A stretch of 48,769 nucleotides of DNA, taken from UHGV virus genome UHGV-0110022; one strand, given 5' to 3'. The stretch comes from a virus. Shown here one piece after another: positions 5,271-48,769 of this stretch (positions are counted from its first letter, which is position 1; each line of letters begins with the position of its first letter). The position numbers and the translations under genes are program-made. The notes under the pieces were generated by a model. The model had not been told where the DNA came from, searched no databases, and worked only from the letters and a program-made list of their open reading frames with translations.

Positions 5271-6201
5271 ATTAACCGGCTATGTATGGGATGGTTGCGC
5301 TGCATCAGGCATGAAATTATCCAGCGTGGCAATTATGGCCCGCCTGGCTGATTTCAGTAATGACGAAGGTGTGTGCTGGCCATCAATTGAAACTATTGCC
5401 CGTCAGATTGGCGCGGGGATGAGTACCGTCAGGACGGCTATCGCACGGCTGGAAGCAGAAGGCTGGTTAACGCGTAAGGCGCGTCGCCAGGGTAACCGCA
5501 ATGCGTCGAATGTTTATCAGCTTAACGTTGCGAAGCTTCAGGCAGCGGCATTTTCTCAACTGTCAGATTCTGACCCGTCAAAATCTGACGCATCAAAATC
5601 TGACCCGTCAAAATTTGATGCGTCGAAATCTGGCAAAAAAGCGGGTTTTCACCCGTCAGAATCTGGCGGGGATCCGTCAGTAAAATCAAAACATGATCCG
5701 TCAGATAAAAAACCTTCTCGTCCGGACGCTTCGCAACCGGACACGCAGACGGATGAACAGGATTTTTTAACTCGCCATCCTGATGCGGTTGTATTCAGCC
5801 CTAAAAAGCGCCAGTGGGGAACGCAGGATGATTTGACCTGCGCACAGTGGCTCTGGAAAAAAATCATCGCCCTGTACGAGCAAGCCGCCGAATGTGACGG
5901 CGAGGTGGTTCGTCCCAAAGAACCGAACTGGACAGCCTGGGCAAACGAAATTCGCCTGATGTGTGTGCAGGATGGTCGTACTCACAAACAAATCTGCGAG
6001 ATGTACAGCCGCGTCAGCCGCGATCCGTTCTGGTGCCGTAACGTGCTCAGCCCGTCGAAGTTGCGGGAAAAATGGGATGAGCTTTCCCTGCGCTTATCAC
6101 CGTCCGTCAGCACGTACACCGAAAAACGCGAAGACCCGTACTTCAAATCCAGTTACGACAACGTGGACTACAGCCAGATCCCGGCAGGATTCAGGGGGTG
6201 A
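5260..6201 (+). CDS. replication initiation protein (O-like; N-terminal winged HTH, central repeat linker)
   Basis: N-terminal HTH domain (IARQIGAGMSTVRTAIARLEAEGWL); central pentapeptide repeats encoded by iteron-like DNA repeats. Confidence 0.5.
   Translation: MSTKLTGYVWDGCAASGMKLSSVAIMARLADFSNDEGVCWPSIETIARQIGAGMSTVRTAIARLEAEGWLTRKARRQGNRNASNVYQLNVAKLQAAAFSQLSDSDPSKSDASKSDPSKFDASKSGKKAGFHPSESGGDPSVKSKHDPSDKKPSRPDASQPDTQTDEQDFLTRHPDAVVFSPKKRQWGTQDDLTCAQWLWKKIIALYEQAAECDGEVVRPKEPNWTAWANEIRLMCVQDGRTHKQICEMYSRVSRDPFWCRNVLSPSKLREKWDELSLRLSPSVSTYTEKREDPYFKSSYDNVDYSQIPAGFRG
5563..5710. repeat. iteron-like tandem 15-bp repeats (putative ori) inside the replication gene
   Basis: Five contiguous copies of TCA(A/G)AATCTGAC(C/G)C(G/A) at 5563-5637, further copy at 5656-5670, followed by A-rich stretch. 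Confidence 0.5.
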
Positions 6202-32134: not shown

Positions 32135-32884
32135 ATGCATCGCATAGACACGAAAACCGCGCAGAAGGATAAGTTCGGCGCGGGTAAGAACGGTTTTACC
32201 CGTGGTAACCCCCAGACCGGCACGCCTGCCACCGATCTGGATGATGACTACTTTGACATGTTGCAGGAAGAGCTTTGCAGCGTGGTGGAGGCATCCGGTG
32301 CCAGTCTGGAGAAGGGGCGGCACGACCAGTTGCTTACCGCGCTTCGTGCGCTGCTGTTAAGCCGCAAGAATCCGTTTGGCGATATCAAATCGGATGGCTC
32401 AGTGAAAACGGCTCTCGAAAACCTTGGTTTGGGAGAAGGCTCTGCATTACCTGTTGGTGTGCCTGTTCCATGGCCTTCAGCCACACCGCCAACAGGCTGG
32501 CTGAAATGCAACGGTGCGGCATTTTCTGCTGAAGAATACCCGGAACTGGCAAAGGCTTACCCGACAAATAAATTGCCTGATTTACGTGGTGAGTTCATTC
32601 GTGGCTGGGATGACGGAAGAGGAATAGATACTAACCGTAGCTTGCTTTCATCACAGGGCGATGCCATTCGAAATATAATTGGTGCATTAGTGGATGTCAG
32701 GTTTAATAACTACCCTTCTGATTCTGGCGTTTTTACAACCAGCGTCATCGGAGATGCTTCATCTGATTCAATTAAAGGTGGTTATGCAAAGCGAGTAACA
32801 TTCGATGCTTCCAGAGTTGTTCCAACTGCAAACGAAAACCGACCTCGTAACATTTCCTTTAATTATATCGTGAGGGCTGCCTGA
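32135..32884 (+). CDS. tail fibre protein (constant N-terminus plus currently expressed variable C-terminus)
   Basis: Conserved tail-fibre N-terminus ([40 protein letters not shown]); contains inversion crossover site at 32412-32437. Confidence 0.8.
32412..32437. repeat. Pin recombination site (left inverted repeat, gix/hix-like)
   Basis: CTCGAAAACCTTGGTTTGGGAGAA; inverted match to 34237-34262 (shared TTGGTTTGGGAGAAG). Confidence 0.65.
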
Positions 32885-33486
32885 TGAATAAAGTTGTCTT
32901 AAATAACGAACTCATTGCCATAAAAGCGGGAGACATAACCGTTTATAATTATGATGGTGAAACGCGGGAATATATTTCCACATCAACAGAATATCTTGCC
33001 ATTGGTGTCGGCATTCCGGCATGTTCCTGTTTAGATGCCCCTAGCCCATACAAAACTGGTTATGCAATTTGCCGTTCTGAAGATTTTAACTCGTGGATAT
33101 ATGTGCCAGACCATCGTGGTGAAATTGTCTATAGCACTGAAACAGGAGAATCAAAAGAAATCACAGCTCCGGGTGATTATCCTGAAAATACAACCACTAT
33201 CGTCCCATTAACGCCATACGATAAATGGGATGGTGAGAAATGGGTGACAGATACTGAGGCACAATATGGTGCCGCAGTAAAAGCGGCAGAAGTACAGCGA
33301 CAGTCACTAATTGATACTGCAATGGCTTCCATTAGTCTGATTCAACTGAAATTGCAGGCCGGGAGGAAGCTGACGCAGACAGAAACCACCCGACTAAACG
33401 CTGTGCTGGATTACATTGACGCGGTGACGGCAACGGATACCAGCACCGCGCCGGATGTCATCTGGCCTGAACTGCCGGAGGAGTAG
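32884..33486 (+). CDS. tail fibre assembly protein (currently expressed orientation)
   Basis: C-terminal Tfa motif LDYIDAVTATDTSTAPDVIWPELP. Confidence 0.8.
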   Translation: MNKVVLNNELIAIKAGDITVYNYDGETREYISTSTEYLAIGVGIPACSCLDAPSPYKTGYAICRSEDFNSWIYVPDHRGEIVYSTETGESKEITAPGDYPENTTTIVPLTPYDKWDGEKWVTDTEAQYGAAVKAAEVQRQSLIDTAMASISLIQLKLQAGRKLTQTETTRLNAVLDYIDAVTATDTSTAPDVIWPELPEE

Positions 33487-33889
33487 GCCATTCAATATCT
33501 GGCGCACCAGAAGTATCGACCAGTTCCAGTGCGTCCAGATAATCCAGCCACAAATTATATTGCGCCAGTTCCTCACCTTTCAGACGACCAATCGCCGCTT
33601 TACCAGGCCATTGTTTACTGTTCATGTATTCGTTGGCCTGATTAACTAATCGCTGTTTATTTGATTCAGCGATTGAGATTAATTCTTCGCTGGTAAGTGG
33701 TGGCGCATCCTGCCATGCTGGAAAACCATTTTTATCTGAACCAAGTATTTTACCATCAGGCCATGCAACTCCTGCGAACTCAGAATAAATAGTAAAGTTT
33801 ATTTTCGTAGCGTTCTCAGGAATGGTTTGGCTATCTGGTGAAATATAAAATCCCGAATCAGAGGGATTAAAATAATATGTCTTTTCCAT
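33458..33889 (-). CDS. alternative tail fibre assembly protein
   Basis: C-terminal Tfa motif LDYLDALELVDTSGAPDIEWPTPP; convergent with the plus-strand tfa. Confidence 0.75.
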   Translation of the reverse strand: MEKTYYFNPSDSGFYISPDSQTIPENATKINFTIYSEFAGVAWPDGKILGSDKNGFPAWQDAPPLTSEELISIAESNKQRLVNQANEYMNSKQWPGKAAIGRLKGEELAQYNLWLDYLDALELVDTSGAPDIEWPTPPAVQAR

Positions 33890-33891
33890 AG

Positions 33892-34262
33892 TTAATACCC
33901 CACTGCCATCCAGTAAATTGAATTTGTTGTAGCAGAAGTGTAAGTAAATCTGATTTTAGTTCTGTTGGTACTTCCAATATCAAAGCCCACAGAACGGGCA
34001 GAAGGATCATTAGTTGAAATAAGAGCGTTTACCGAACGACAAGCAGCAGGGAAAGCTACAGGTAATGTTATATCAACTGTTCCAACACTTCCTCCGGTTG
34101 GTGAGACAGAAAAACTCCCCCATTGAATAATCATCCCCCCAGGTAATTTCTGGTATCCATTGGCGGTCAATGAGTTACCAAAGTTGTTCATATCCGGTAC
34201 CTGATTTTCTCCTGTCCCCACATTCCGTTTTGCCGCTTCTCCCAAACCAACGTTTATGAAAA
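33892..34262 (-). CDS. promoterless alternative tail-fibre C-terminal segment
   Basis: Open frame runs through the right recombination site (..INVGLGEAAK..) matching ..[10 protein letters not shown].. at the left site, so inversion would fuse it to the constant N-terminus. Confidence 0.55.
34237..34262. repeat. Pin recombination site (right inverted repeat)
   Basis: TTCTCCCAAACCAACGTTTATGAAAA; internal dyad symmetry typical of Hin/Gin-family sites. Confidence 0.65.
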
Positions 34263-34316
34263 TGCAGAAATAACGAGCAAATGGCATCATTCCTGCTTTT
34301 GTCAGAGGGATCCACT

Positions 34317-34871
34317 ATGCTTATTGGCTATGTACGCGTATCAACAAATGACCAGAACACCGATCTACAACGTAATGCGTTGAACTGTGCAGGATGCGAG
34401 CTGATTTTTGAAGACAAGATAAGCGGCACAAAGTCCGAAAGACCAGGATTGAAAAAACTGCTAAGGACATTATCGGCAGGTGACACACTGGTTGTCTGGA
34501 AGCTGGATCGGCTGGGGCGTAGTATGCGGCATCTGGTCATTCTGGTTGAGGAGTTGCGCGAACGTGGCGTTAATTTTCGCAGCCTGACGGATGCTATTGA
34601 TACCAGCACACCGATGGGGCGTTTTTTCTTTCATGTGATGGGTGCCCTGGCTGAAATGGAACGAGAACTGATTGTTGAACGAACAAAAGCTGGACTGGAA
34701 GCTGCTCGCGCACAGGGACGAATTGGGGGACGTCGTCCCAAACTTACACCAGAACAATGGGCGCAGGCCGGACGATTAATTGCAGCAGGAATTCCTCGCC
34801 AGAAGGTGGCGATCATCTATGATGTTGGTGTATCGACACTGTATAAGAAGTTTCCGGTCGGAGATAAATGA
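34317..34871 (+). CDS. pin: serine DNA invertase (Pin/Gin/Hin family)
   Basis: N-terminal MLIGYVRVSTNDQNTDLQ with catalytic Ser, C-terminal HTH; 184 aa. Confidence 0.85.
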   Translation: MLIGYVRVSTNDQNTDLQRNALNCAGCELIFEDKISGTKSERPGLKKLLRTLSAGDTLVVWKLDRLGRSMRHLVILVEELRERGVNFRSLTDAIDTSTPMGRFFFHVMGALAEMERELIVERTKAGLEAARAQGRIGGRRPKLTPEQWAQAGRLIAAGIPRQKVAIIYDVGVSTLYKKFPVGDK

Positions 34872-36382: not shown

Positions 36383-36428
36383 ATTCGTAATGCGAAGGTC
36401 GTAGGTTCGACTCCTATTATCGGCACCA
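36383..36428 (+). tRNA. thrW: tRNA-Thr 3' fragment (anticodon loop to CCA end); prophage att core / attR-like
   Basis: ATTCGTAATGCGAAGGTCGTAGGTTCGACTCCTATTATCGGCACCA matches the 3' part of tRNA-Thr(CGU) as recalled; 5' acceptor strand GCCGATA absent upstream. Confidence 0.65.
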
Positions 36429-37008
36429 TCAACAGAAAATCCCGTAAAAACAGCATTCTTTAGCATGTTTATCTAACGGTTTGTAACTTCTGTTCTAACG
36501 TCTGTTAGCACTGGTAAACGCCTTTGCGTTGTATCGGCTCAAGTATTGTACAACGTACTGGCGGGTAGTTACCAGGCTCAAGCCCGAACAGCATTAGAAA
36601 TTATGCCATCCCTTGAAGCTAAAAGAGTTGCCGGACTCTCTAAACACATCACTTGAACCCTTAGCGATACGTTCCGCGCTTCGTGCGGCGCTCAATGATG
36701 CTACACGTCGAGATGACGTTGCAGAAAATAAACAGGCGTAATGTTGGGAAGACTAACCGGATCGGGAAAGAATCCGGCTCTGCCACGGTTTCGATCACCG
36801 GAGTATAACGATCACCTGATAAGAGAACGTGCTAAGGCTTTATCCTCCCTGCGAAGGGATTACACCCTGCGGAAGCGCTACGCGCCGCCTTTTCTTATGT
36901 GCCCAACACGGCACGTAATGGTCATCCATTATCTGCACCATTGTAACTTTCGTTGTACTGCCTCTCTGATGTACGTTGAGCGCTGGCAGATTCAGCGGAG
37001 GGGATATC

Positions 37009-37167
37009 ATGTCAAAAGCTAACCAAAAAGCAGCCACGAAGCGCAACAACCGTAAGATTCACGCCCGTAAATTCCTGGCAACACCAGAGGGGAAAGCCTG
37101 GCTTGCTAAGAAGCAGGAAGAGCGAGAGGAAATCAAGTTGGCGCGAGCTGCAAACTTGATGTTTTGA
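37009..37167 (+). CDS. small basic protein (52 aa)
   Basis: GGAGGGG RBS 5 nt before ATG. Confidence 0.4.
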   Translation: MSKANQKAATKRNNRKIHARKFLATPEGKAWLAKKQEEREEIKLARAANLMF

Positions 37168-37178
37168 GATGGGGCTAA

Positions 37179-37979
37179 TCAGCCCCTATTGCCCCTATGC
37201 TTTTTTTCGAATCTTGTCACAACTCTATCCAACCATTTGGGTTCTTCTCTAAGATCTGAGTAGTAACAATTTTCTGGAACCGCGTTCCAGAAAGCAGTTA
37301 TTGCGTTAGCAAAATCTACAAATTGATCTTCTGAGACATGTAAATCGTCATGGTTAGGGACAATCTGCGTGCCTCTAACATCGGTGGGGTTTGGGTAATA
37401 CTCAGGATGATCAACTGATAGTGTTTGATGTGCAGGGCCGTCTCCATGCTTGTATACGTTTACCACCAAGTTACAGGCTTTTATCCTTTCTCCGTATTCG
37501 GTTCCATTGATTGTGAGGCCAATCCATTCGAGCAAATCAATTAGCTGATGGAAAGTTAAATTCCAGATCATGGGGGTAATCAATTCTCTTTCACACCAAT
37601 TACTTAGCTCTTTGATAGTATGTTCTCTTAGTTTTTTATCAAACTGATGATACATACCTGCTGTCAACGCCAACAATACGGTATTTTGCATCTCCAGAAG
37701 CGACCATACATAATAAATTCCCTCATGATAGGCTTGCTCGTAGGCCGCCATTGGGTCATCGTTATCTTGATCAAAATACTCAGCAGTAGTCTCCAAAAAC
37801 TGTTGTTCTCTCTTCTCTGCTTCTTGTTCTAAATCACCAAACTGAGAGAGAAGCCGCCGCCTTGCCTCAGAAACGTAAAATTCATGGGGTTCAAGAAAGT
37901 ATGGAAGATCGGCTCTGGCTAACCAGAAGGTGACAAAATTTTCAGTAGACATACATTTCCTCAATGAAGCGATAGACAT
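37179..37979 (-). CDS. hypothetical protein (266 aa)
   Basis: Long ORF; no recognisable motif; start uncertain. Confidence 0.45.
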   Translation of the reverse strand: MSIASLRKCMSTENFVTFWLARADLPYFLEPHEFYVSEARRRLLSQFGDLEQEAEKREQQFLETTAEYFDQDNDDPMAAYEQAYHEGIYYVWSLLEMQNTVLLALTAGMYHQFDKKLREHTIKELSNWCERELITPMIWNLTFHQLIDLLEWIGLTINGTEYGERIKACNLVVNVYKHGDGPAHQTLSVDHPEYYPNPTDVRGTQIVPNHDDLHVSEDQFVDFANAITAFWNAVPENCYYSDLREEPKWLDRVVTRFEKKHRGNRG

Positions 37980-38115
37980 TTTGAGGTTATGTTATCTTCG
38001 GTGAGGGTTAAAATCCTCAACTGATTCAATGGAATTGTCATTTGGTTTGAAATGCGGTAAAAGAATAAAATTCGTAATGTACGCTTTGCAGAAACAATCT
38101 GAAAATGAGGTGGTT

Positions 38116-38343
38116 ATGAGTGAACGTTACGAATTTTTACCCAATTGCTTCCTGAAAGTCTCTATCTCATCGGGTTACTTTACTGCCATCCTTGATGGTT
38201 CGCTTCCTCCTGATACCCCTGGTTCTGTTCATGCTGATAATGCCACGCAAGTCATAATCGTACTCGATTCCTACTTCCAATTGACTGACTTACAGCATCA
38301 AGGAATTGCTAATTATCTTTGCTCTCAAGGGATGGAACTTTGA
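38116..38343 (+). CDS. hypothetical protein (75 aa)
   Basis: GAGG RBS before ATG 38116. Confidence 0.3.
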   Translation: MSERYEFLPNCFLKVSISSGYFTAILDGSLPPDTPGSVHADNATQVIIVLDSYFQLTDLQHQGIANYLCSQGMEL

Positions 38344-38798
38344 TAGATTGGTTGCTTAATGTTGATAATCTGACCATGCTTGCCGCATGGGCTGGGTTTG
38401 CACTATCCATTTTCCAGCTATTAAAATCCAGAACAGATCTACGCCTTTTCTTAGGTTGCGATCAGTATGAAGACAGAATTTATGTTTCCAACAAAAGCGC
38501 CCATGATGTGACGATAAGTTCGGCGGGCATAGTAACCGCCAGCGGACGCCTTAGCGATTGTTCTAACGAACATTGTGATGAATACATGATCAGCCCCATG
38601 TTGCCACGCCGATTAAAAGCCCGTGATGAAATGATCTTAGAAGTACCATTCATCAATAAGGCTCACCATAATAAGGTGCATCATCGCGGAGGGGTGTATG
38701 TTACTACATCTGATGGGAAGCTGTTCAGTGATGTTAGTTGGCTGCGTCGTCGCTGGTGGTGGATATTGTCTCTGATCCTACGTGATTCCAAGCAGTGA
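38319..38798 (+). CDS. hypothetical protein, possibly membrane (start uncertain)
   Basis: ORF with hydrophobic N-terminal segment; no clear RBS. Confidence 0.3.
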   Translation: MLSRDGTLIDWLLNVDNLTMLAAWAGFALSIFQLLKSRTDLRLFLGCDQYEDRIYVSNKSAHDVTISSAGIVTASGRLSDCSNEHCDEYMISPMLPRRLKARDEMILEVPFINKAHHNKVHHRGGVYVTTSDGKLFSDVSWLRRRWWWILSLILRDSKQ

Positions 38799-38856
38799 TT
38801 ACTTATACACCGCACCAGACCACGCTGGTTATCTGCTTGTCTTCCTTCTTCAATCG

Positions 38857-39054
38857 TTACTCCTCTTCAAAGGTCATTGTGTAGCGGCATTGCTGCGACG
38901 GCCTGAGCGTCACTGTCTCCGTAAAGTTGGCGTTGGAATAAACGCAAATCTTCGCGTTGTCTGTCTCCTGTTCGTCACTGAGAATCAGGGTTATCTGTCC
39001 GGCATTCGCCAGGACTGGCATTACTGTCAGCGTCAGCACAAGCAAGCGTTTCAT
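38857..39054 (-). CDS. small secreted protein (65 aa with signal peptide)
   Basis: AGGAG RBS 7 nt before ATG; signal peptide MKRLLVLTLTVMPVLANA; directly downstream of the recombinase. Confidence 0.45.
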   Translation of the reverse strand: MKRLLVLTLTVMPVLANAGQITLILSDEQETDNAKICVYSNANFTETVTLRPSQQCRYTMTFEEE

Positions 39055-39064
39055 GCGTATCTCC

Positions 39065-39697
39065 TTATAAGTCCATCTCATTGATCACACGGCTAACGGC
39101 TTGCTTGTCTAAATCCAGATAGCGCCTGGTGTCAGTGATGTTGCTGTGATTAAGCACGGTCATAGCTAAAGCGATGTTGTTTGCTGAACGCTTGTAGATG
39201 GCATTCCCGCCAGCTTTGCGGAAGCTGTGAGCTGATACAGTGCCATGAATACCGATAGCTTTAGCGGCCTCTGCGATCTGCTTGCTCACTTCTTCGCGTC
39301 GTACAGGCGCTTGCTTGTTCATTGATCGGTTACGCTGGCTTCTGAACACATGCACATCATGCGGATACTCAGCACGGCGACGAGCAATCATCTGCACCAC
39401 TGGAGCAGGGAGAGTGAGGGCTTTACGCTTCCCTGTCTTCTGTTCTTCTATGTCAATCTCACCGTTGATCACTTCGTCGAAGCGTAACGCTACGGCATCC
39501 CCCACACGCAGTACAGCGGCTTGCATCATTAACGTAACGTCAGCTATCAGGCTCTTGTTATGAGCGTTTAGCCACTCCCTGATCGCTTTGGCTTGCTGTT
39601 CGTCTAACACTACTGCTCTGTTCAATTTACCCTCCCATAAAGACACACATCTAAACTCAACGAAACAAATAATATGATCAATTTCAGTAAGTTGCAA
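39065..39697 (-). CDS. small tyrosine recombinase (catalytic domain only, FimB/FimE-size)
   Basis: Catalytic residues in LRVGDAVALRFDEV (Arg), HSFRKAGG (His-x-x-Arg), TDTRRYL (Tyr); possible TTG start at 39625 after GGGAGGG RBS, giving 186 aa. Confidence 0.55.
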   Translation of the reverse strand: MQLTEIDHIICFVEFRCVSLWEGKLNRAVVLDEQQAKAIREWLNAHNKSLIADVTLMMQAAVLRVGDAVALRFDEVINGEIDIEEQKTGKRKALTLPAPVVQMIARRRAEYPHDVHVFRSQRNRSMNKQAPVRREEVSKQIAEAAKAIGIHGTVSAHSFRKAGGNAIYKRSANNIALAMTVLNHSNITDTRRYLDLDKQAVSRVINEMDL

Positions 39698-40384
39698 TAT
39701 AAATGATCAAAAATCGAACTGTCTTGTGTGTGGTAAATGGCGCGATTGCGTCCAGTGCTTAACGACCTCCAGGGCCGCCTCCAGATCGAAAATTTCTTCT
39801 CCTCTAAATATCTTGAACAAAATCATGATGTTGGCATTTATAAACATGTGTTTGAACATTGCCAAATCCTCAACTCTGCACGAAGAACAGCGGCAACAGC
39901 GGAACATCACACTACCAATGCTTGTGTGTGGTTATTGTCTATCTCATTGATTTAAATCTGATAAATGTAAGGTTGTTAGGCGAGGGCGGGGCTAACCTGC
40001 CTGTATGCACAGATTATGCGGAGTTTATGCACTTGAAACTGAGTGTGTAATGAAATGATTAGAATGCTAATCAATTGGTGGATTTTGGCATGAAAAAGAA
40101 ACATCGTTTCATTTTAGAAAACTCGTTCAGCACATTGCACCTGTCATGAAACTCCTCATTGTGGACAATGATCGCTGTGAGCCGCATGGCGCAAGGCTTT
40201 ACGCAAAGTGAGTGATGGTTACTATCTTGCTGACTATGGCAACTTTACCCATGTAACAACGGCAATCTTTACCTGTCATTTAAGATAGGCTTAGCTATGA
40301 TTATCGTGTTGTTTTGATAGGAATAACCTCTCGTTACTCTTAGTGTTGTTGCATGGATGAATCAGAGTTAGTTGGGGGCGTTAT

Positions 40385-40464
40385 ACATCAAAATGATGTA
40401 TAGATGCATGGGATACGCATCAAATTGATGTATGGATCGGCAAACTACACATCAAATTGATGTT
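40385..40464. repeat. three phased palindromic repeats (putative regulator binding sites)
   Basis: CATCAAA(A/T)TGATG at 40386, 40418, 40450 with exact 32-bp spacing. Confidence 0.5.
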
Positions 40465-41014
40465 CTATACAAAGAGATTCTAAAAGCGATCTCTAAAAGA
40501 GAGCTTTTAGAAGATCTTGTTAAAGATTCGCTTTGCTGGCGCGTATCGCCTGGCAAGTGACCTGATTCGCCTTTGGGGGCTACTCGGTCAGCCGCTCACG
40601 ACGCAGCGTAGCGCATCTGTCTGTGATTGTGCCAGGGCTTCGCCCTCGTGAAACGAGGCACAGAAGCTATGCGCCGTGTGCGCAATGTCTTTCAGGATAA
40701 CTTCTGCCTGTCTTCCATGCTCCGCATTCATCCATGCAAAGTTAGCCCACGGCTAAGGATTCACTGGTCGCTGATGGCTCCAGTTCATCCAGCCTCAATC
40801 CAATACCATCACCTACTATCCTGATAACTAACGTTATCCCTCAGTAGTTGTGCTATTGGTTTCGGGAGTAAGTGCCAGAGGGCGGCGGTAACGCAAACGG
40901 AACGCCCCAGACGCGCTGAGAGCGAATTTGAGAGGATAGGGAGGGGATTGCAACTCTCAGGCTTTCAAACCTGTTAGAAAGCGATAGACCGCGTTTTATG
41001 ATGACATGAATGAG

Positions 41015-41094
41015 TTGATCACAACGTGGAAATGCGCTATAATTTGAAAGGGATTGAAATAAGTGTTGACATTTAAATCATTTCATGTTAAAGT
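41015..41094 (+). promoter_or_regulatory. tandem sigma70-like promoters
   Basis: TTGATC-17 nt-TATAAT (41015-41043) and TTGACA-17 nt-TAAAGT (41066-41094). Confidence 0.45.
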
Positions 41095-41189
41095 AAATGA
41101 TGTAGGGTGATGAAAGCATTCATCCCGTCCTCATCTCAGGCATCCAGCCTAACGCAAACAATCCAACTTACACCGCACTATCAGGCAAC

Positions 41190-41438
41190 GTGATTAACGT
41201 TCTCCCTGGATGGTGTTTCTGTGTTTCTAACGCAAGGAGAACCAAAATTAAGTATTTTAATCCAGAACTTGTCTTCGAGGCTTTAAAGGCCGGAAGCCAG
41301 ACGCGAAATGCAATAAACAGCCAGCGAGCAGCCGCACAACGGCAAGGATATTTCGAACACGCTGAAAGATTGCGTAAAGGAATCGAACTTTACGATCAAT
41401 GGAAAGCTGAACAGGCTGAAACCACCACCAACGAATAA
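41190..41438 (+). CDS. hypothetical protein (start uncertain)
   Basis: ORF with internal AAGGAG at 41233 but no in-frame ATG after it. Confidence 0.3.
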   Translation: MINVLPGWCFCVSNARRTKIKYFNPELVFEALKAGSQTRNAINSQRAAAQRQGYFEHAERLRKGIELYDQWKAEQAETTTNE

Positions 41439-41456
41439 ACCAGAAGGAGAAACCAA

Positions 41457-41633
41457 ATGAGCGAAATCCAGAAGAAGAAACCAGCCGGAACATTCGTAAA
41501 ACTGCCGGATGAAGTGTTTAGTACTTTGTTCAAAGAGGCGCGAGCGAGAGGCGTAACAGTGCAGGAGATGTTAATTGACGCTGCAACCACACTTTCCACA
41601 TCAATTAAGAACGGAGAACGTTCTACCAAATAA
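41457..41633 (+). CDS. small DNA-binding-like protein (58 aa, possible ribbon-helix-helix), not in the ORF track
   Basis: AGAAGGAG RBS 7 nt before ATG; translation MSEIQKKKPAGTFVKLPDEVFSTLFKEARARGVTVQEMLIDAATTL... Confidence 0.4.
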   Translation: MSEIQKKKPAGTFVKLPDEVFSTLFKEARARGVTVQEMLIDAATTLSTSIKNGERSTK

Positions 41634-41647
41634 GGATACACCCTAAC

Positions 41648-42388
41648 ATGACTGACATTATAAACAGTAAGGCTTTTAGTTTCACCAACACCGAAGACGC
41701 ATTTAACGAATGCACCAGGATCACCAATCTTAAAACAGGCGTAACAGAGTCCCTGTCTCCTGCTGATAAGCAGTTTTACGTCAGAATGCGCCATCGTTAT
41801 TATCGCTTTGCGATAGAGTTGGGCGGTACTTATTACGATGACATTGATCAACTTGGTGCAAGTATTGGTGTCAGCTCGGCTACGGCAACACGTATTGTTG
41901 CAAAGTTGAAGAAAATCGGACTGATCGCCAGTAATAAGCCAAAGCGCTCTAACCAATGGACTATAACGCCACTCACGCCGCAAAACTTCACCTTTGAACG
42001 TGATCGTAATGCGATGGAACGTGATTCCGCGCCGGAATGGGTAGATTGTCTGAAACATCCCGTGTTTGGCAAAGCTAAAGAAGACGTAGCGCCAGAGGAA
42101 GAAAAACAGCAGTCAGTGCCAGAAGAGGCCAAAGCAGATCCGAAGCCGGAGAAGCCAAAGAAAATGCCTACGAAGAAACCCGCCTCCATTCCAGCTAAAG
42201 ATATTAAGATAGAGCCAGTTAATTTAAACTTTCTTGAGGGTTATCGGGATGAATGGGAGAATCCTGAAAAGAATCTACCAGTTTCACAACATCCGAAAAT
42301 CAGATGGCTACTTATTAACGGATACCTGGACACAGAGAAGAATCCAAAACTTAAACCAATCTACGAGGAAATAGAACATTTATGCTGA
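41648..42388 (+). CDS. HTH-containing protein (246 aa), possible replication/regulatory protein
   Basis: Winged-helix-like segment IGVSSATATRIVAKLKKIGLI; Lys/Pro/Glu-rich linker. Confidence 0.45.
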   Translation: MTDIINSKAFSFTNTEDAFNECTRITNLKTGVTESLSPADKQFYVRMRHRYYRFAIELGGTYYDDIDQLGASIGVSSATATRIVAKLKKIGLIASNKPKRSNQWTITPLTPQNFTFERDRNAMERDSAPEWVDCLKHPVFGKAKEDVAPEEEKQQSVPEEAKADPKPEKPKKMPTKKPASIPAKDIKIEPVNLNFLEGYRDEWENPEKNLPVSQHPKIRWLLINGYLDTEKNPKLKPIYEEIEHLC

Positions 42389-42843
42389 AAACGGTTATAC
42401 CCAAACAATACAACGAACGTGATCTTAACATCATCCATCTTGCCAGTTTATTAAATCCAGAAGTTGAAAGAGGTGTTGCATTCGAACAAGCGCAAGAACT
42501 TGTAGATGTTTACGCTGAGCGAGGTGAATCAAGTTACGCTAATGCTCTTGTTACGCTATTCAATGCAGCGATGAAGCCACCGAAAGAGATAGAATGTAAA
42601 ATGACATCCCCACATCTTCACGATAAGAATCTGTCTCCTTCGGAACGTCTGGTATTAATGCACCTCGAATCACTGCCATCATTAACAAATGTGAAACAGG
42701 AGTCAATAGCGATAGTGTTGGGGATAAGTGTGGCAACTGTATCCAGTGCGATTCGCAAGCTCCGCCGCAATGATTATCTAACTACTACGTTAATCAAACC
42801 TGGTCGCGGTAAAGGATGCGACATTACACTTACGACTAAATAA
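42382..42843 (+). CDS. winged-helix transcriptional regulator-like protein (153 aa)
   Basis: HTH-like segment IAIVLGISVATVSSAIRKLRRNDYL. Confidence 0.4.
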   Translation: MLKTVIPKQYNERDLNIIHLASLLNPEVERGVAFEQAQELVDVYAERGESSYANALVTLFNAAMKPPKEIECKMTSPHLHDKNLSPSERLVLMHLESLPSLTNVKQESIAIVLGISVATVSSAIRKLRRNDYLTTTLIKPGRGKGCDITLTTK

Positions 42844-42947
42844 CAACAATCGGGAAACTTTTATGATTACTGCTTTATGGTGGTTCACCATATTCTATGG
42901 CGTTTACGTTATAACCAGACAAGGAGTTTCCCCTCTACGAGGAATGA

Positions 42948-43331
42948 ATGGGACGAAAAGAACGAAGTAACCTTGTTAGAATCGAAAAAGCCACACGCAT
43001 CAGCAAACGTAAATACACCTCTTCTCTACAAGACCTCGCACGAGAGTCTATTCCTGGTGAGATGGTGACAACTATTAAAGAATATCCCGCAGTAGTACCA
43101 AATGGATTAGAGTTTGAACTATTGCAGGATGTTCTATCGTCAACGGATAACGTTTATTACAAACCACGACGCAGACGCGAATATATTATAGATAGTAGCC
43201 ATCTCAAGAAATGGCAAATAGCAGGATTTGAACATTACGCCGATTATATTGGGTATTGTCAAACCTGGGGGCTATCCCAGCACACACAAGAGTTTGATAT
43301 TCTCTTTGACGACAAGGAAAACAATGAATAA
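42948..43331 (+). CDS. hypothetical protein (start uncertain)
   Basis: ORF only. Confidence 0.25.
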   Translation: MGRKERSNLVRIEKATRISKRKYTSSLQDLARESIPGEMVTTIKEYPAVVPNGLEFELLQDVLSSTDNVYYKPRRRREYIIDSSHLKKWQIAGFEHYADYIGYCQTWGLSQHTQEFDILFDDKENNE

Positions 43332-43662
43332 TAAAACTATGGACACAGTGAACACCCTAATTAACTCTTTCCACGACAACTGGCATTTACCAACCTTACA
43401 GCTTGTTAATGCAGCGTGGCGTGAGAGAACGCCCTCCGCGCTTCTGGAAGCGGTGCAATACACTGAACAGGCAATCACTGCCCTTGAACATCTGCAAACG
43501 TCTGTAGCTCGTTTGGTGCAGCGTGACGGCAGTTCGATCACACCAGAAGAAGCGTGGCGTGTAGCTAATGACCTTGAGGAGCTTGCTTGCTCTCTGCAAT
43601 ACATCACCGTTGAACTCGGAGAGCTTTCCATCCAGATCGCGGAAGAATGCGCCATAACATAA
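43324..43662 (+). CDS. hypothetical protein (112 aa)
   Basis: AAGGAAA RBS before ATG 43324. Confidence 0.35.
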   Translation: MNNKTMDTVNTLINSFHDNWHLPTLQLVNAAWRERTPSALLEAVQYTEQAITALEHLQTSVARLVQRDGSSITPEEAWRVANDLEELACSLQYITVELGELSIQIAEECAIT

Positions 43663-43677
43663 AAGTTACTAAATGTC

Positions 43678-43706
43678 TTGACATTATGTGCTATATGTGT
43701 CATAAT
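43678..43706 (+). promoter_or_regulatory. near-consensus sigma70 promoter
   Basis: TTGACA(43678-43683)-17 nt-CATAAT(43701-43706). Confidence 0.55.
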
Positions 43707-44236
43707 GAGTTATAGGGTAAGTATTCGAATCACTTCACCCTCGTATGTCAATACGCACTCCTTGAGAATGCCGTTCCCATAGCGGCATTCTCTCCCTCTG
43801 AATGCTATTTCTGAAAGTGTTGGTTCTTTGTCTTGTTTGTTCCGAAGGAATGCGCGGGATGTAATATCTCGTTGTGTTGGTATTGCATCGCAATCACCGC
43901 GCATCTCCGACTTTTTCAGAAAGGGCATTCGCTCTTTGCTCATTCATTCCGTTAGGATGAATGTAGTCAGACTGAATAAACGCCGTCAGCGGTAGTTACG
44001 TTCAGGCTGGCAATCTCTTATTACTATTCCAGTGGTGATATTGAGATTCCATTCCCACTTCTCGCCATGACAGAAGGGCTTCTGTTTTGAAGTGGGAGCA
44101 ATGACGGGCGATCCTACTTCTGTTATTCGTAACAGTTGCGCCCTTCATTTTTTCAAGAAGCCATTCTTTAACATCATAATCCTCCGAAACGAAAATGATT
44201 TTAACAGAATGCTTTCTAACAAGGGCATATTCTCCA

Positions 44237-44258
44237 GGGGCTTAATCGCCCCTTTTTA
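44237..44258 (+). terminator. rho-independent terminator at the end of a structured leader
   Basis: GGGGC-ttaatc-GCCCC followed by TTTTT. Confidence 0.55.
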
Positions 44259-44328
44259 ACAATCTGCATGTAACACTTCCGTTATTAATGGAAGGATAAA
44301 CGCAGTTATAACGCGAAGGAACAACACA

Positions 44329-44544
44329 ATGTTCTTAATAAACAATCGCGACCGAATCCTAAAATACAAATCCGAAGTGATTCAAGTTAATCCTGAGTTA
44401 ATAGCTAAAGTGGCTGAAATGGCAGGATGTACCGTTGAAGAAATAGAAAAAGCTGTAGACCAGTATTTCCCTTCTGAGGACACACCTCAACTTAGTATGC
44501 AGGAACGGATCGCAATCAAATCCAAGGAAATCAAACAACAATGA
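44329..44544 (+). CDS. hypothetical protein (71 aa)
   Basis: AAGGAA RBS; first gene of the capsid-like cluster. Confidence 0.4.
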   Translation: MFLINNRDRILKYKSEVIQVNPELIAKVAEMAGCTVEEIEKAVDQYFPSEDTPQLSMQERIAIKSKEIKQQ

Positions 44545-44900
44545 TTGTAGACCTAACCGAACTTTTCCCAATTCGTAAGAGTTTCACTGACGTATTGAGC
44601 TACGCCACTGATTCTTTTGCAGTCGTAGAAGGCCGTGTTTTCGACCTGCCAGCAGATATTGAATGCGGCGATGTTATCGGCGCTGATGGCGCTCTATACA
44701 CCTCCGGCGATGATGCCTTTGTGGTGGTAAGTGATTTCGTGAGTGCTGGCGACGGTAAAACCGTGAATGTCCTACGTGCGCCTAATGTTGGTAGCTTCGT
44801 AGCACTGAAAGCCGACAACCTGCACGCAGCTAATCACGCCGCAGCTATCACCACGCTCGAATCCAAAGGGTTCGTATGCCGTCCATTCTTCACCTCTTAA
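44541..44900 (+). CDS. head decoration protein-like (D-like, putative)
   Basis: 119-aa Gly/Ala/Val-rich protein immediately upstream of an E-like capsid gene; ATGA overlap. Confidence 0.4.
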   Translation: MIVDLTELFPIRKSFTDVLSYATDSFAVVEGRVFDLPADIECGDVIGADGALYTSGDDAFVVVSDFVSAGDGKTVNVLRAPNVGSFVALKADNLHAANHAAAITTLESKGFVCRPFFTS

Positions 44901-44916
44901 TCAAGGAAGATAAATA

Positions 44917-45948
44917 ATGAGTAAAATCGCAATTGGGCGTGAGATGGTCGATTTAGCGCCAATCTTCCAGGCTCTGCCGGAACGTAACTATCTTATGAAT
45001 GCCCTCGACCTATTCGACGGGGTAGGTGTTCAGAATCCGAAAGTGGTGGTGACACAGCTTCTGGATGATAACTACAGCCTGTTTAACACCCCGCAGAGCC
45101 GTTATTCATCAAACCACGACACTACCGCGCGTCAGAATGGCAAAGAATACCTTATCGAGATTCCTTGGTTTGCAAGGGAAGATGAGTTTAAACCTGTAGA
45201 CGTACAAGGCCGCAGAGTGCAGGGAACGGACTACGAGCAAACCGTTACCGACCTGTACACCGAATACACTGGCAAACATAAGATTGCTTATCTGCGTACC
45301 CGTGAGTCTTACCTGGCCCGTGCTCTGTTCAAAGGTGAAGTTTATACGCCTGCAACTGATGACCTACTGATCTCTTATGCTGAACTGTTCGGTGTGGTGC
45401 CAATGACAGCCAGCGTGAGCACAGCGACAGCGGCACAGGATTTTGATGCGATCTTAGACAAAGTTCAGGCTGCCGCAGGTGGATTGGCTGGACAGATTGA
45501 ACGAGTGATCGTATTCGCTAAACCTGCTGCATTTAGCCAGATTCGCTTCTCTGACAGTATGTCTAAGGCGTTCCAGTATGTAGCGCCATATGACGACCGT
45601 AACCTATTCTACCAGCGTCACGAGCTTCTCCCTGGTGTTAGTACGTTTAGCCTACCTGGTGCGCCTATCGACATTGTTAAAGTGACAGATCCGCTGATCC
45701 TTGCACAGATGCCAGATGATGCTGACATGGTGGCGGTTCCGGTGTTCAGTAAAGGCACAAATGCTTATCAGAACATCTACGGCGCTGCCTCTGGTAACTT
45801 TGCGCTGATCGATGCTGCACCTGCTGAATACTACTCTTGGGGCTACCTGAGCGAGCGCGGCGATGCTTACCACGTTATGCACGAAAACAGCGCATTACCA
45901 GTGAACCATGCGTTAGGTATGCAGGTGAAGATCACCATCACTGCTTAA
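44917..45948 (+). CDS. major capsid protein, E-like family (putative)
   Basis: 343 aa, lambda gpE-like size and composition; follows decoration-like gene. Confidence 0.5.
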   Translation: MSKIAIGREMVDLAPIFQALPERNYLMNALDLFDGVGVQNPKVVVTQLLDDNYSLFNTPQSRYSSNHDTTARQNGKEYLIEIPWFAREDEFKPVDVQGRRVQGTDYEQTVTDLYTEYTGKHKIAYLRTRESYLARALFKGEVYTPATDDLLISYAELFGVVPMTASVSTATAAQDFDAILDKVQAAAGGLAGQIERVIVFAKPAAFSQIRFSDSMSKAFQYVAPYDDRNLFYQRHELLPGVSTFSLPGAPIDIVKVTDPLILAQMPDDADMVAVPVFSKGTNAYQNIYGAASGNFALIDAAPAEYYSWGYLSERGDAYHVMHENSALPVNHALGMQVKITITA

Positions 45949-46067
45949 TGAGCAAGCGGGAGCCTGACCCGCTGGAAATAATCAGGCTATTGAATATGGC
46001 GTGTGAACGTTGGGAACATCTCCCCAGTGTTCCCGCCCTTTTTTATTTCCAGAATGAGGAAAGATAA

Positions 46068-46265
46068 ATGCAAGTGATTGTAAAAAGCGCGGGGCTTCAC
46101 CTCGCCGTAAATGCTGAAACAGCAGAAGAGTTATTAAATCTGGCGGGAGTGTGTCGTGTGCTTGAAATAGATCACGGTCATCTACGTCAGTTATTACATC
46201 GTGGGCGTAGTGTATCAGATGCACTTAATTATCTGGTGAGTAAAAAAGGCGGTGGCGATGCTTGA
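46068..46265 (+). CDS. hypothetical protein (65 aa)
   Basis: GAGGAAA RBS. Confidence 0.35.
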   Translation: MQVIVKSAGLHLAVNAETAEELLNLAGVCRVLEIDHGHLRQLLHRGRSVSDALNYLVSKKGGGDA

Positions 46266-48102
46266 GATTAATACAAGTAAGATCGTCAACACCGTAACTT
46301 TCACCGTTGACAAAGGGAGTATTGCAGAGGCTAAGGCCGCAGCGGATAACCTTCAAAAGCACTTCCAGAAAATAGCCGATCCCAAGATTCGCTTCCAGGA
46401 TCTGAAGCAGCGCAGACAGAAAGCCCGTCAACAAGCCGATGATGCACGTTTTAATGATAAGCCTCGTGATACGAAGGAAATGAAAGCCCAACGTGCGGCG
46501 GAGAAGCAGAAAGCCAGGGATGAAAAGGCCAATCTGAAAGCGAAGCAGCAGCTACAGAAGCGCCAAGAGACAGCCGAGCTTAAACTTCGCCATGCAGGGC
46601 TACAAGTGTCAGGAATTAAAGGTAAATACGGGCTTGATCCTAAATCTCAGTATGAAGCGTTACGTTATATTCATCAGCAAAGCGAAGAGTTTGCGAAGGG
46701 GAATATTAGCTCTCAACGTATGAATGCGCTTATACGCGAGCGTGTAACCCTGTTACGCAGAGAAGCCGCACAACAAGCGAAAGTGACACAGGCACAGCGT
46801 ACCCAGTATGCCGCAGCAGCCACTAAGCTAAAGGCTCAGAAGGGCGGGAATGCTCCTATCGTCGGTGGTGGGGTATTAGGAAGCCTTGCGTTAACGGCTG
46901 GCTCCCTCGGAGTGGGGCAGCGAATTGTTGACAAAGGGAATGAAAATCTTGACTTGGTTAGAAAATCGGAACTTGTTAAGACTAATCCTAACGTAGTTAA
47001 AACGATGGTGGCATGGGGGCAGCAACACGGAGTTGATAGCGCCAATGTCGATAAAGTGACGGACAATTTCAAAGATGTACGTGAACGTATCGCTATGACC
47101 CTGAACGATAGCCAGTTTAAAAATGGCGAATGGAAAGGCGGCGATGGTGGTATCACTTCTATTATGAATAAGTTTGGATGGGGCAAAGAACAGATTAAAT
47201 CCTTCCAGGATCGTCCTGCTGATCTACTTCAAGCAGTTACCAATGAAGGGCAACGCCGTGGTATGTCACAGGCTCAGATTGGTACGCTTATAGAGAGTTT
47301 AGGTGATGACCTGATGCACTACACCGATATGTTCATGAACAACGGTGCAGAATATAACAAGACGCTGAAACAGCTTGTCGATAGTGGTCAAACTCTTAAC
47401 GAGGAGCAGATCAAGCAAACTCTTGCATATGGTGATCTGAGTGTAGCGATGGGTAATCTCATGAATGGCGTTGATAACAGCATGTTTACAGGCTTTATGA
47501 AAGGCTTTGCTGATGGTGGTGACGACCTGGTGAAGAACACCAAAGTGATAACAGAATCTGCTGGTATGCTCGGAGAGGGATTAGGCGACCTGGCTAAACA
47601 GGTGACGGGCTTTGTTGGAGAAATCTCCAGCGTAGTGTCTGATCTTAACAGTGCGCTTCGTCAGCGCTTCCCTGAATGGTTTAGCGATACTAAGAAACCT
47701 GCTGTTCAAAATCTTTATGATGGTGCTGTGGGTGGCTCTGCGAATGCTACGGCCGATTGGATTCAGGATAAAACGGGGTTTGATACCCGTTCAGTGGCTC
47801 CGGCTATCATGGATTGGTTGGGCGTTGGTAATCAGCAAGCAGGGACAGCGGCTAATCAATACAGCCTTTCAGGGGAAAATCTCCGTGCTTCGGCAATGTC
47901 GCTCAACAGCAGCAACGCGCCAGCGTACACGTTGAACCCGATATTCAACCTACAAGTGAATCCACAAGTGGGATTGACTCTGCAAAGTGATGTTTCTCGA
48001 TTGTCTGACTATATCGACTGGTCTGCAAAAGCGAGTGCGGATTCATTCACTCGTAGCCTTACGCTATCAGCCTTGAGCGGTCAGTCATCCACAGGGGGAT
48101 GA
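46258..48102 (+). CDS. large virion-associated protein, function unknown (tape-measure-like or scaffold-like composition)
   Basis: N-terminal Lys/Gln/Ala-rich coiled-coil region, Gly-rich central region; start ATG 46258 or GTG 46252. Confidence 0.4.
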   Translation: MLEINTSKIVNTVTFTVDKGSIAEAKAAADNLQKHFQKIADPKIRFQDLKQRRQKARQQADDARFNDKPRDTKEMKAQRAAEKQKARDEKANLKAKQQLQKRQETAELKLRHAGLQVSGIKGKYGLDPKSQYEALRYIHQQSEEFAKGNISSQRMNALIRERVTLLRREAAQQAKVTQAQRTQYAAAATKLKAQKGGNAPIVGGGVLGSLALTAGSLGVGQRIVDKGNENLDLVRKSELVKTNPNVVKTMVAWGQQHGVDSANVDKVTDNFKDVRERIAMTLNDSQFKNGEWKGGDGGITSIMNKFGWGKEQIKSFQDRPADLLQAVTNEGQRRGMSQAQIGTLIESLGDDLMHYTDMFMNNGAEYNKTLKQLVDSGQTLNEEQIKQTLAYGDLSVAMGNLMNGVDNSMFTGFMKGFADGGDDLVKNTKVITESAGMLGEGLGDLAKQVTGFVGEISSVVSDLNSALRQRFPEWFSDTKKPAVQNLYDGAVGGSANATADWIQDKTGFDTRSVAPAIMDWLGVGNQQAGTAANQYSLSGENLRASAMSLNSSNAPAYTLNPIFNLQVNPQVGLTLQSDVSRLSDYIDWSAKASADSFTRSLTLSALSGQSSTGG

Positions 48103-48253
48103 TTGTGATGTAAATCACATGGGAATACCACATATTGCGCTCGCTTTGTAAAGGATGTGTATATGTGGTGTTTTTCTTTGACGCCGCTTCGTTTGTCCCT
48201 TACCCTTAAAAGGGTAAGCAGTTCACTCTTTATCTCCAAGATGAGGTGTTTTT

Positions 48254-48382
48254 ATGGCTAAGAAAACAGTAGTTCGTTCTGCGATAACTGGTCAGTTTGT
48301 TAAGCCCATTGAAGCTAAACGACATCCTGATACTACGATAACTGAAACTATCAAAATCCCTACCAAGAAAGCTAAGAAATAA
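48254..48382 (+). CDS. small basic protein (42 aa), not in the ORF track
   Basis: GAGGTG RBS 5 nt before ATG; translation MAKKTVVRSAITGQFVKPIEAKRHPDTTITETIKIPTKKAKK. Confidence 0.3.
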   Translation: MAKKTVVRSAITGQFVKPIEAKRHPDTTITETIKIPTKKAKK

Positions 48383-48440
48383 AAATATCTCAAAGTGCCC
48401 ATAGCGGCGCTTATTCATTTGAATGTCTGGAGAGAATTAA

Positions 48441-48719
48441 ATGGCAAACAACTTGTTTGTAACCTATGACTTGATCAAAACCAAAGATTATGCTGCTGTG
48501 CATGATGCTATCAAGGCCTTGGGCAACTGGGCAAAAGTTACCGAGTCGAACTGGTACGTAAATTCGAATTATTCGGTTGAAGAGGCTGCCAGAAAAGTTC
48601 GGGCAGCGATGGATAGCGATGATAAGTTGATTGTTGTTGATGCTAAGAATAACTCTGCTTCCTGGTATAACCTTTTGCCAGCAGTTGAGAATCAAATTCA
48701 AAACGAATGGAATAAATGA
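48441..48719 (+). CDS. hypothetical protein (92 aa)
   Basis: ORF followed by hairpin GGGGGAT..ATCCCCCC. Confidence 0.4.
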   Translation: MANNLFVTYDLIKTKDYAAVHDAIKALGNWAKVTESNWYVNSNYSVEEAARKVRAAMDSDDKLIVVDAKNNSASWYNLLPAVENQIQNEWNK

Positions 48720-48769
48720 GTTATCGGGGGATGGATAATCCCCCCTTAATTACTGGACGTTGTAATTTA

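Follow-up and report, generated by a model that had tools for sequence, protein, structure and literature searches.

What an array of palindromes does, and which protein it belongs to, is the question raised by a stretch of the virus genome UHGV-0110022 (48,769 nucleotides, hereafter the window), in which three phased palindromes lie near the gene of a small tyrosine recombinase. A first-pass annotation, made from the letters alone, took the locus for a FimB/FimE-style invertible switch or for a small integrative element with its own binding-site array. Here we argue that the segment 40382-40517, comprising the palindromes and an adjoining AT-rich element, is very probably the replication origin of a chromosomally integrated island. 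The origin would be recognised by a replication-initiator-like protein of 246 amino acids (Rep; 41648-42388, plus strand), with the recombinase as a separate component. We put the whole of this explanation, an iteron origin together with a separate recombinase, at a probability of roughly 0.7.

The features on which the first-pass annotation had built were all recovered: a recombinase with Arg, His-x-x-Arg and Tyr motifs, a co-oriented signal-peptide open reading frame (ORF) of 65 amino acids, three evenly spaced palindromes that are conserved on comparative alignment of homologous loci, an inverted repeat following them, and a pair of 12-bp direct repeats. It is their interpretation that changes.

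Results

A palindrome array adjoins a conserved AT-rich element

The palindromes CATCAAA(A/T)TGATG (CATCAAAWTGATG) start at 40386, 40418 and 40450, exactly 32 bp apart, and make up a predicted initiator-binding array of three iterons at 40382-40463. They are the only exact matches in the 48.8 kb, and the 10 matches found at up to two mismatches compare with 4.06 +/- 2.02 in shuffled sequences. Directly to their right, at 40464-40517, lies an AT-rich element (GC content 0.32), a putative DNA-unwinding region, with two GATC sites and an 8-bp inverted repeat (TTCTAAAAGC at 40478-40487 and GCTTTTAGAA at 40503-40512). A consensus scan predicted no promoter inside this element or in or next to the array; the two promoters predicted for the rightward replication operon (41015-41094, plus strand; TTGATC-17-TATAAT and TTGACA-17-TAAAGT, each with 10/12 matches) are found ~600 bp to the right.

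The palindromes are kept in more than 20 related loci, most of which have four copies instead of three; where the Rep N-domain is the same as in the window, the four copies are spaced ~42, 33 and 32 bp. Near-identical E. coli islands (E. coli, Escherichia coli) differ in iteron number by whole 32-bp units, with either three or four sites. One such case is strain MS6192 (L116), in which an exact duplication of one unit (equivalent to window 40418-40449) yields four iterons in an island otherwise 98.4% identical.

The array co-varies with the N-domain of Rep

For comparison we used ~40 related loci, fetched via homologues of the recombinase or of Rep. The exact palindrome was absent from the first four of them, which led us to an analysis of co-variation. 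Two blocks of DNA are conserved in the set, namely the recombinase gene with ~0.5-0.7 kb upstream of it (38860 to ~40130-40330) and everything from 42842 on; the palindromes and two helix-turn-helix genes are in the replaceable cassette that separates these blocks. Loci with a recombinase 96-99% identical to that of the window but with another cassette lack the palindrome and have other arrays at the same place, such as four copies of TGTGACGTTATGTCACA in L001 and four copies of CCCCTATCA-N4-TGATAC in L007. All 10 loci fetched via Rep homologues of 82-89% identity carry CATCAAAWTGATG arrays, and L019 and L020 do so despite a recombinase only 42% identical to the window's.

Islands of Klebsiella have ACATCAAAATGATGT four times, next to a recombinase of 39-42% identity (the value depends on the method), a different Rep C-domain, an orf82 of 34% identity and no HTH_36 gene; their Rep N-domain is 71-74% identical to that of the window and has the same recognition helix (SSATATRIVAKL against SSSTATRIVAKL). 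The HTH_36 protein is not the iteron binder, because it is missing from these islands with the same iterons. Two other recognition helices, KYDAASDGIKKL and SKRTALRCLEDL, pair with ATACGGGAAAAACCCGTAT and GTGACAAAATGGCAC iterons, respectively, in loci in which orf58 is still 88-91% identical to the window's. L001 and L007 have a Rep C-domain in common but different N-domains and different iterons. Over the whole set, five iteron types correspond to five Rep N-domain types, and the other neighbouring proteins are excluded. The array thus goes solely with the N-terminal winged helix encoded within 41648-42388; since it co-varies with this domain independently of recombinase type, it does not belong to the recombinase.

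The AT-rich element, (C)TATACAAAGAGATTCTAAAAGCGATCTCTAAAAGAGAGCTTTTAGAAGATCT, behaves differently from the iterons: it is nearly identical in three different iteron types and stands at a fixed distance from the last iteron. Relic type C iterons (GGTGTCAATTTGGCAC) are visible just upstream of type A arrays in L011 (~5640-5675) and L022 (5560-5615), which indicates in-place replacement of one origin cassette by another.

Rep resembles initiators of the RepA_N kind

Rep has an N-terminal winged helix (DUF6945), which is modelled with confidence, a disordered linker rich in Pro, Lys and Glu, and a small helical C-domain. It matches phrog_8102, annotated as "replication initiation protein" (5e-10), and phrog_391, annotated as "O-like" (3.7e-5). 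With a profile of its family the best sequence match in the PDB is 4RO3 (1.6e-6). A Foldseek search with the N-domain also places 4RO3 first (E 3e-5; template modelling (TM) score 0.67-0.69; root-mean-square deviation (rmsd) 2.6-2.9), followed by RepA N-domains of Staphylococcus aureus plasmids and a Rep-DNA complex (4PQL, 4PTA, 4PT7, 5KBJ; rmsd 2.8-3.9), interleaved with MarR/ArsR regulators. What 4RO3 shows is the N-domain of RepA, which experiments have proven to be the initiator of the Vibrio satellite PLE (phage-inducible chromosomal island-like element; PMC7145576). Iterons of RepA_N proteins are semi-palindromes that converge on a poly-A tract (PMC7145576), and the sites found here have this form: CATCA-AAA-TGATG, ATACGGG-AAAAA-CCCGTAT and GTGAC-AAAA-TGGCAC. 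Further attributes of an iteron origin are at least three dyad-symmetric repeats, an AT-rich region adjoining them and a nearby cognate initiator whose DNA-binding domain co-varies with the repeats, and all of these are found at the locus.

Because the sites are RepA_N-type semi-palindromic iterons that co-vary with a RepA-like N-domain, we read the array as a replication origin. Dimers of Rep would bind the palindromes through the N-terminal winged helix, and the 32-33-bp spacing, about three helical turns, would set them on one face of the DNA. The complex would then open the adjoining GATC-bearing element (40464-40517), and this opening would start theta replication of the excised island. 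Architecture, conservation, co-variation and fold relationships are observed here, whereas initiator binding, origin firing and any activity of the recombinase are inferred.

Several observations speak against an origin. The N-domain fold is also close to that of MarR/ArsR repressors, and the name given to Rep by NCBI is ArsR-family regulator; Pfam returns DUF6945 at 27.9 bits, just under the cut-off of 28, together with weak MarR matches, and its RepA_N model (PF06970) does not match Rep. The array lies ~1.2 kb upstream of the rep gene and not inside it as in lambda, and the island has no recognisable helicase or primase gene. In addition, three loci with a recombinase 96-99% identical to the window's (L005, L006 and L008) carry a third kind of cassette, equivalent to window 40200-42840, in which no comparable iteron array was found.

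Some of these points would suit an operator array, in which Rep is a MarR/ArsR-like repressor that binds cooperatively and controls gene expression or immunity instead of replication. This is the main rival. It explains the co-variation equally well, site-protein co-variation being as much to be expected of an operator as of an iteron; the closeness of the fold to MarR, ArsR and SmtB, the weak Pfam matches and the NCBI name are also in its favour. We nevertheless regard it as unlikely, given that the nearest predicted promoters are those of the operon, ~600 bp away, and that the AT-rich GATC element always adjoins the array and is common to different specificities. Moreover, the best match in both sequence and fold is a proven initiator, the PHROG families are those of replication initiators, and lambda O and RepA_N initiators likewise have an N-domain, a disordered linker and a small C-domain in succession.

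The recombinase is Xer-like and the locus shows no sign of inversion

The recombinase ORF (39065-39697, minus strand) matches PF00589 (Phage_integrase) at E=3.7e-16 over residues 30-199 of its 210 amino acids. Its real start is the TTG at 39625, which follows the Shine-Dalgarno sequence AAGGAGGG and is kept in nine loci; this gives a tyrosine recombinase of 186 amino acids (39065-39625, minus strand), identical to the one annotated in E. coli genomes by the Prokaryotic Genome Annotation Pipeline (PGAP), with a catalytic domain only and no core-binding domain. Homologues of 22-96% identity all share R40, K63, H133-x-x-R136 and Y169; position 160 is His except in the two most divergent types, where it is Gln. 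The AlphaFold2 model (predicted local distance difference test score, 89) is a single catalytic domain, closest to the catalytic domains of XerH, XerA and lambda Int (TM 0.70-0.76). Among NCBIfam and PDB profiles XerA, XerD, XerC and XerH rank first, and the FimB and FimE models of NCBIfam gave no match. From these comparisons the 186-residue protein is predicted to be catalytically complete and to be Xer-like rather than specifically FimB-like.

A phmmer search of the PDB with the recombinase returned no match, so that a profile was needed; profile searches uncovered a large family of proteins of 180-200 amino acids, with 1,779 cluster representatives below 1e-10. Full-length homologues of ~30% identity are carried by 827 plasmids, from Enterococcus, Bacillus, Clostridioides and others, and 186 phage records also contain them; among the latter is phiCD38-2, a phage that is maintained as a plasmid. 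The predicted promoter of the recombinase operon lies at 39669-39697 on the minus strand (TTGCAA, 17 nt, TATTAT; from a consensus scan), and its hexamers are conserved in our alignment A1. The recombinase stop is followed after 10 bp by the gene of the signal-peptide protein (38857-39054, minus strand; 65 amino acids), which is probably co-transcribed with it. PGAP calls a coding sequence of the same length, homologues follow the recombinase gene in most islands, and the protein matches phrog_4641 (7e-15), a phage family of unknown function.

A FimB/FimE-style phase switch would require the mini recombinase to invert a promoter segment, for example that between the ACACACA/TGTGTGT matches at 39642-39649 and 39724-39734, and so to toggle the replication operon. 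Like FimB and FimE at fimS, the protein belongs to the size class of ~190-200 amino acids, has a catalytic domain only and is encoded beside non-coding DNA with short repeats; hhalign relates it to FimB with a probability of 97% at 24% identity, a similarity at family level only, and the short inverted match brackets the predicted recombinase promoter. That match, however, is 6-7 bp long and CA-repeat-like, and the locus offers one candidate full site (described below) where inversion needs two, in inverted orientation. All ~40 related loci and nine near-identical complete E. coli genomes are collinear over the block 38860-40330, and no inverted allele, which would be expected to join CCACACACA to TCTAAACTC and CGAACTGTCT to TGTGTGTC, is present in any genome examined. 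The gene lies in a mobile island by a replicon and not in a fimbrial operon, its product is best matched by XerA, XerH and XerD, and the palindromes that had prompted the idea appear to belong to Rep. We consider such a switch quite improbable and do not uphold it. The other suggestion of the first-pass annotation, a small integrative element with its own array, was right in outline, as there is an island of ~13.6 kb; the array itself goes with the Rep N-domain and not with the recombinase.

A packaging (cos/pac) recognition site and a partition centromere, with a winged-helix adaptor as the binder, are very improbable readings of the array. Phased repeats are also targets of small terminase subunits and of centromere-binding proteins, and an island carrying capsid-like genes must be packaged somehow; but the island has no recognisable ATPase of the ParA or ParM type and no recognisable terminase, and the binder matches initiators and not small terminase subunits. 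We rejected the partition site on the first of these grounds and the packaging site on the last. That the palindromes are att- or res-type recombination or accessory sites of the mini recombinase, as their proximity (~760 bp) and dyad symmetry might suggest, is scarcely credible, as at least four unrelated arrays accompany the same recombinase (96-99% identity) and one and the same array accompanies recombinases of 39-42% identity, and the palindrome half-sites are 1-3 bp apart and not the 6-8 bp that staggered cleavage by tyrosine recombinases needs.

Candidate sites and a possible role of the recombinase

The sites of the recombinase would most likely lie in its own upstream block. Here the direct repeats CTTGTGTGTGGT occur at 39723 and 39921, and both copies are invariant in nine related loci; as a count they are unremarkable, with 3 matches at up to one mismatch against 1.0 expected, a number reached by 9 of 100 shuffled sequences. 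The second copy forms part of a candidate core site at 39904-39932 (plus strand) with the structure ACATCACACTA-ccaatgc-TTGTGTGTGGT (11-7-11), whose arms are invariant in the nine loci and whose 7-bp spacer has three variants. A single copy of TTGTGTGTGGT at 39724-39734 (plus strand), an exact repeat of the arm 39922-39932, is a candidate accessory or autoregulatory half-site. It is situated just upstream of the recombinase promoter, is likewise invariant in the nine loci, and is missing where the island recombinase is divergent. An analogous layout, with a motif of its own, is seen for a second recombinase type. A decayed remnant of the recombinase region is seen in a Salmonella locus (L009, 9800-10300), where one deletion endpoint coincides with the motif at window 39724.

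We tentatively propose, at somewhat less than even odds, that the role of the recombinase is single-site resolution of replicon multimers: it would recombine one site per replicon copy and so turn multimers of the replicating island into monomers. This role fits best because there is one full candidate site, because the gene is adjacent to the origin and because relatives are found on plasmids. In the known multimer-resolution systems (P1 Cre/lox, XerCD/cer, Tn4430 TnpI/IRS and F ResD/rfsF) a recombinase gene likewise stands next to the origin of a circular replicon. The candidate single core site, with an extra copy of the motif ~170-200 bp away, resembles their combination of core and accessory sites, and homologues of the island recombinase are abundant on plasmids and plasmid-prophages. 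All of these systems, however, have the core-binding domain that the island recombinase lacks, and the site proposed for the island is only weakly predicted. The proposal is further weakened by three observations. About 50% of shuffled sequences give a comparable inverted repeat with a recurring arm, and because half of the shuffles pass the same test we treat the core site as hypothetical; the functions of the plasmid homologues are themselves putative; and on pBS32 the homologue is not beside the replicon.

The island and its relatives

Genome comparisons place the palindrome region in an island of ~13.6 kb that has inserted at tRNA-Thr (thrW) of E. coli, next to a prophage. In nine complete E. 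coli genomes, 36383-48769 is present as one collinear piece at 99.5-99.8% identity, with homology beginning at 36383. At this point lies a 3' fragment of tRNA-Thr (36383-36430, plus strand; reading ...GGTCGTAGGTTCGACTCCTATTATCGGCACCA), the attachment-site core and left-hand limit of the island. In strain AR_0128 of E. coli the same element adjoins the intact tRNA-Thr gene (thrW) beside proA and ends on its other side in a full-length tyrosine integrase of 407 amino acids, a gene that would stand just past the end of the window.

With an integrase and an attachment site, a small size and no complete set of virion or packaging genes, the anatomy of the island is that of a phage satellite resembling phage-inducible chromosomal islands (PICIs), and it would depend on a helper. 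Its late-gene homologues, at 44541-48102, are a gpD-like protein, a major capsid homologue of the lambda E type and a tape-measure-like protein (TolA according to PGAP); relatives also encode a Dit-like distal tail protein (L011, 13491-14168). No terminase or portal gene was recognised in the island.

Relatives, found via the recombinase or Rep, occur across the Enterobacteriaceae, in Enterobacter, Klebsiella, Citrobacter, Leclercia, Buttiauxella and others. Their common gene order begins with the mini recombinase, present in every island, usually followed by the small signal-peptide ORF and by 1.5-2 kb with little or no coding. It continues with a small ORF (52-60 amino acids), the winged-helix protein (241-277 amino acids) and, in many islands, the HTH_36 protein (in the window 153 amino acids, 42382-42843, plus strand; PF13730 at 1.6e-8), an accessory part of the replication cassette. 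It ends with several small ORFs, a gpD-like ORF, a Phage_cap_E capsid homologue, tape-measure-like and Dit-like genes and an integrase with a DUF6538 domain. Single Rep variants are indexed in roughly 400-460 blocks of the assembly collection. Searches of phage and plasmid collections with the DNA of the region, in near and distant modes, returned no match, nor did tblastn of Rep against phages and plasmids; a literature search for DUF6945 returned no paper, and we found no publication on the island family.

The spacer between recombinase and origin tolerates insertions, since it harbours a Dam methylase gene in Klebsiella islands (L022, 4826-5494) and an IS3-family element in a Leclercia locus (L002, 7426-8594). 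Positions 1-36100 of the window hold a myovirus-like prophage, with genes for terminase, sheath, baseplate and tail fibres, which stands in tandem with the island across the tRNA-Thr fragment; at thrW of AR_0128, island and prophage come in the opposite order. This prophage encodes a Gin/Hin-type serine invertase (34281-34871) beside opposed tail-fibre and assembly ORFs (32135-34871), and the segment 32135-34871 looks like a classical invertible host-range segment and like the real inversion system of the window.

Conserved non-coding stretches

A GC-rich non-coding stretch to the right of the origin (40520-40960), with hairpins that show compensatory changes, is conserved across cassette types. 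Its palindrome GATAAC-N4-GTTATC is nearly invariant and differs only in the Klebsiella locus L022. RNAalifold, applied to 40530-40960, gave similar energies on both strands, 7-8 compensatory pairs and a positive covariation term; a structured RNA, a single-strand initiation signal or a group of protein-binding sites would each be a possible reading of the stretch. Rfam and tRNA scans over the window found nothing, and the one match from a permissive Rfam scan of 39600-41300 was a spurious microRNA on the AT-rich palindrome.

Between the two copies of the recombinase motif, the element TTTGGCAAyGTTCAAACA..TGTTTA..TGCCAAC (39803-39870) is kept even between islands with recombinases 42% identical, and may be a site for a host factor or for an island regulator. 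Non-coding patches at 39975-40330, among them the palindrome AATGATTAG-AATG-CTAATCAAT and three GCATA(A/C) repeats ~11 bp apart, are conserved independently of recombinase and Rep type.

Discussion

As judged from sequence comparison and structure prediction, the island module appears to serve replicon maintenance, with an iteron origin, a RepA_N-like initiator and a separate mini tyrosine recombinase, all of them parts of known kinds. The closest parallel is with RepA of PLE and the RepA_N theta replicons of pSK41 and pTZ2162, which supply the best matches of the initiator N-domain in both sequence and structure (4RO3, then 4PTA, 4PT7 and 5KBJ). As in PLE, the predicted origin is located in a non-coding part of a satellite integrated into the chromosome, the C-domain of the initiator varies between lineages, and the initiator has no primase or helicase domain. 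The differences are that the island protein falls in DUF6945 and not in Pfam RepA_N, that its host is one of the Enterobacteriaceae, that its replication is a prediction made here, that PLE has a large serine integrase where the island has a tyrosine integrase, and that the island iterons follow one another at 32-33 bp and are joined to a single conserved AT-rich GATC element.

At the lambda origin, O dimers bind four imperfect inverted-repeat iterons that lie beside an AT-rich region (PMC7466680). The island array, too, has such iterons, three or four of them, adjoining an AT-rich, putative unwinding region with a palindrome, and Rep resembles O, whose PHROG family it also matches, in the succession of an N-terminal DNA-binding domain, a linker and a C-domain. 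The lambda origin, however, lies inside the O gene with iterons ~20-24 bp apart, whereas the island array is intergenic, ~1.2 kb upstream, with 32-bp spacing, and a P-like helicase loader was not recognised in the island. With PICIs, capsid-forming PICIs (cf-PICIs) and P4-like satellites the island shares a size of 12-14 kb, an integrase with a tRNA attachment site, a replicon of its own, a frequent position next to prophages and a few captured late-gene homologues (capsid-E-like, tape-measure-like and Dit-like). It differs from them in having no AlpA, primase-type Rep, Bro zone, terminase or portal genes. We rejected membership of the PICIs, in the organisation given by Tommasini et al. (Int-AlpA, Bro, primase and late zones), on the absence of AlpA, Bro and primase.

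A more far-reaching view of the island family is possible, though we hold it to be rather doubtful. In it, an undescribed satellite family, widespread in Enterobacteriaceae and with its own capsid-, tape-measure- and Dit-like genes, would have as its conserved core the mini recombinase together with the iteron origin and a RepA_N-like (DUF6945) initiator. Replication specificity would be re-assorted repeatedly in this family by swapping cassettes of N-domain and iterons onto one unwinding element. The recombinase would have a role not yet described for catalytic-domain-only proteins, such as replicon resolution or a switch between the integrated and the plasmid state without a core-binding domain.

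The analysis indicates that a recombinase beside phased palindromes need not be a switch, and that comparative loci can assign binding sites to a protein without experiments. Initiators of the PLE type, RepA_N-like and in 2019 described as rare in Gram-negatives, would be common in islands of Enterobacteriaceae under the labels DUF6945 or "ArsR-family regulator". Their pairs of iteron and winged helix on one unwinding element would form a natural orthogonal set of origins and initiators, usable for studies of replication specificity and of incompatibility between satellites. The universally retained mini recombinase, in turn, would be a clean target for establishing the role of catalytic-domain-only tyrosine recombinases on phage, plasmid and satellite replicons.

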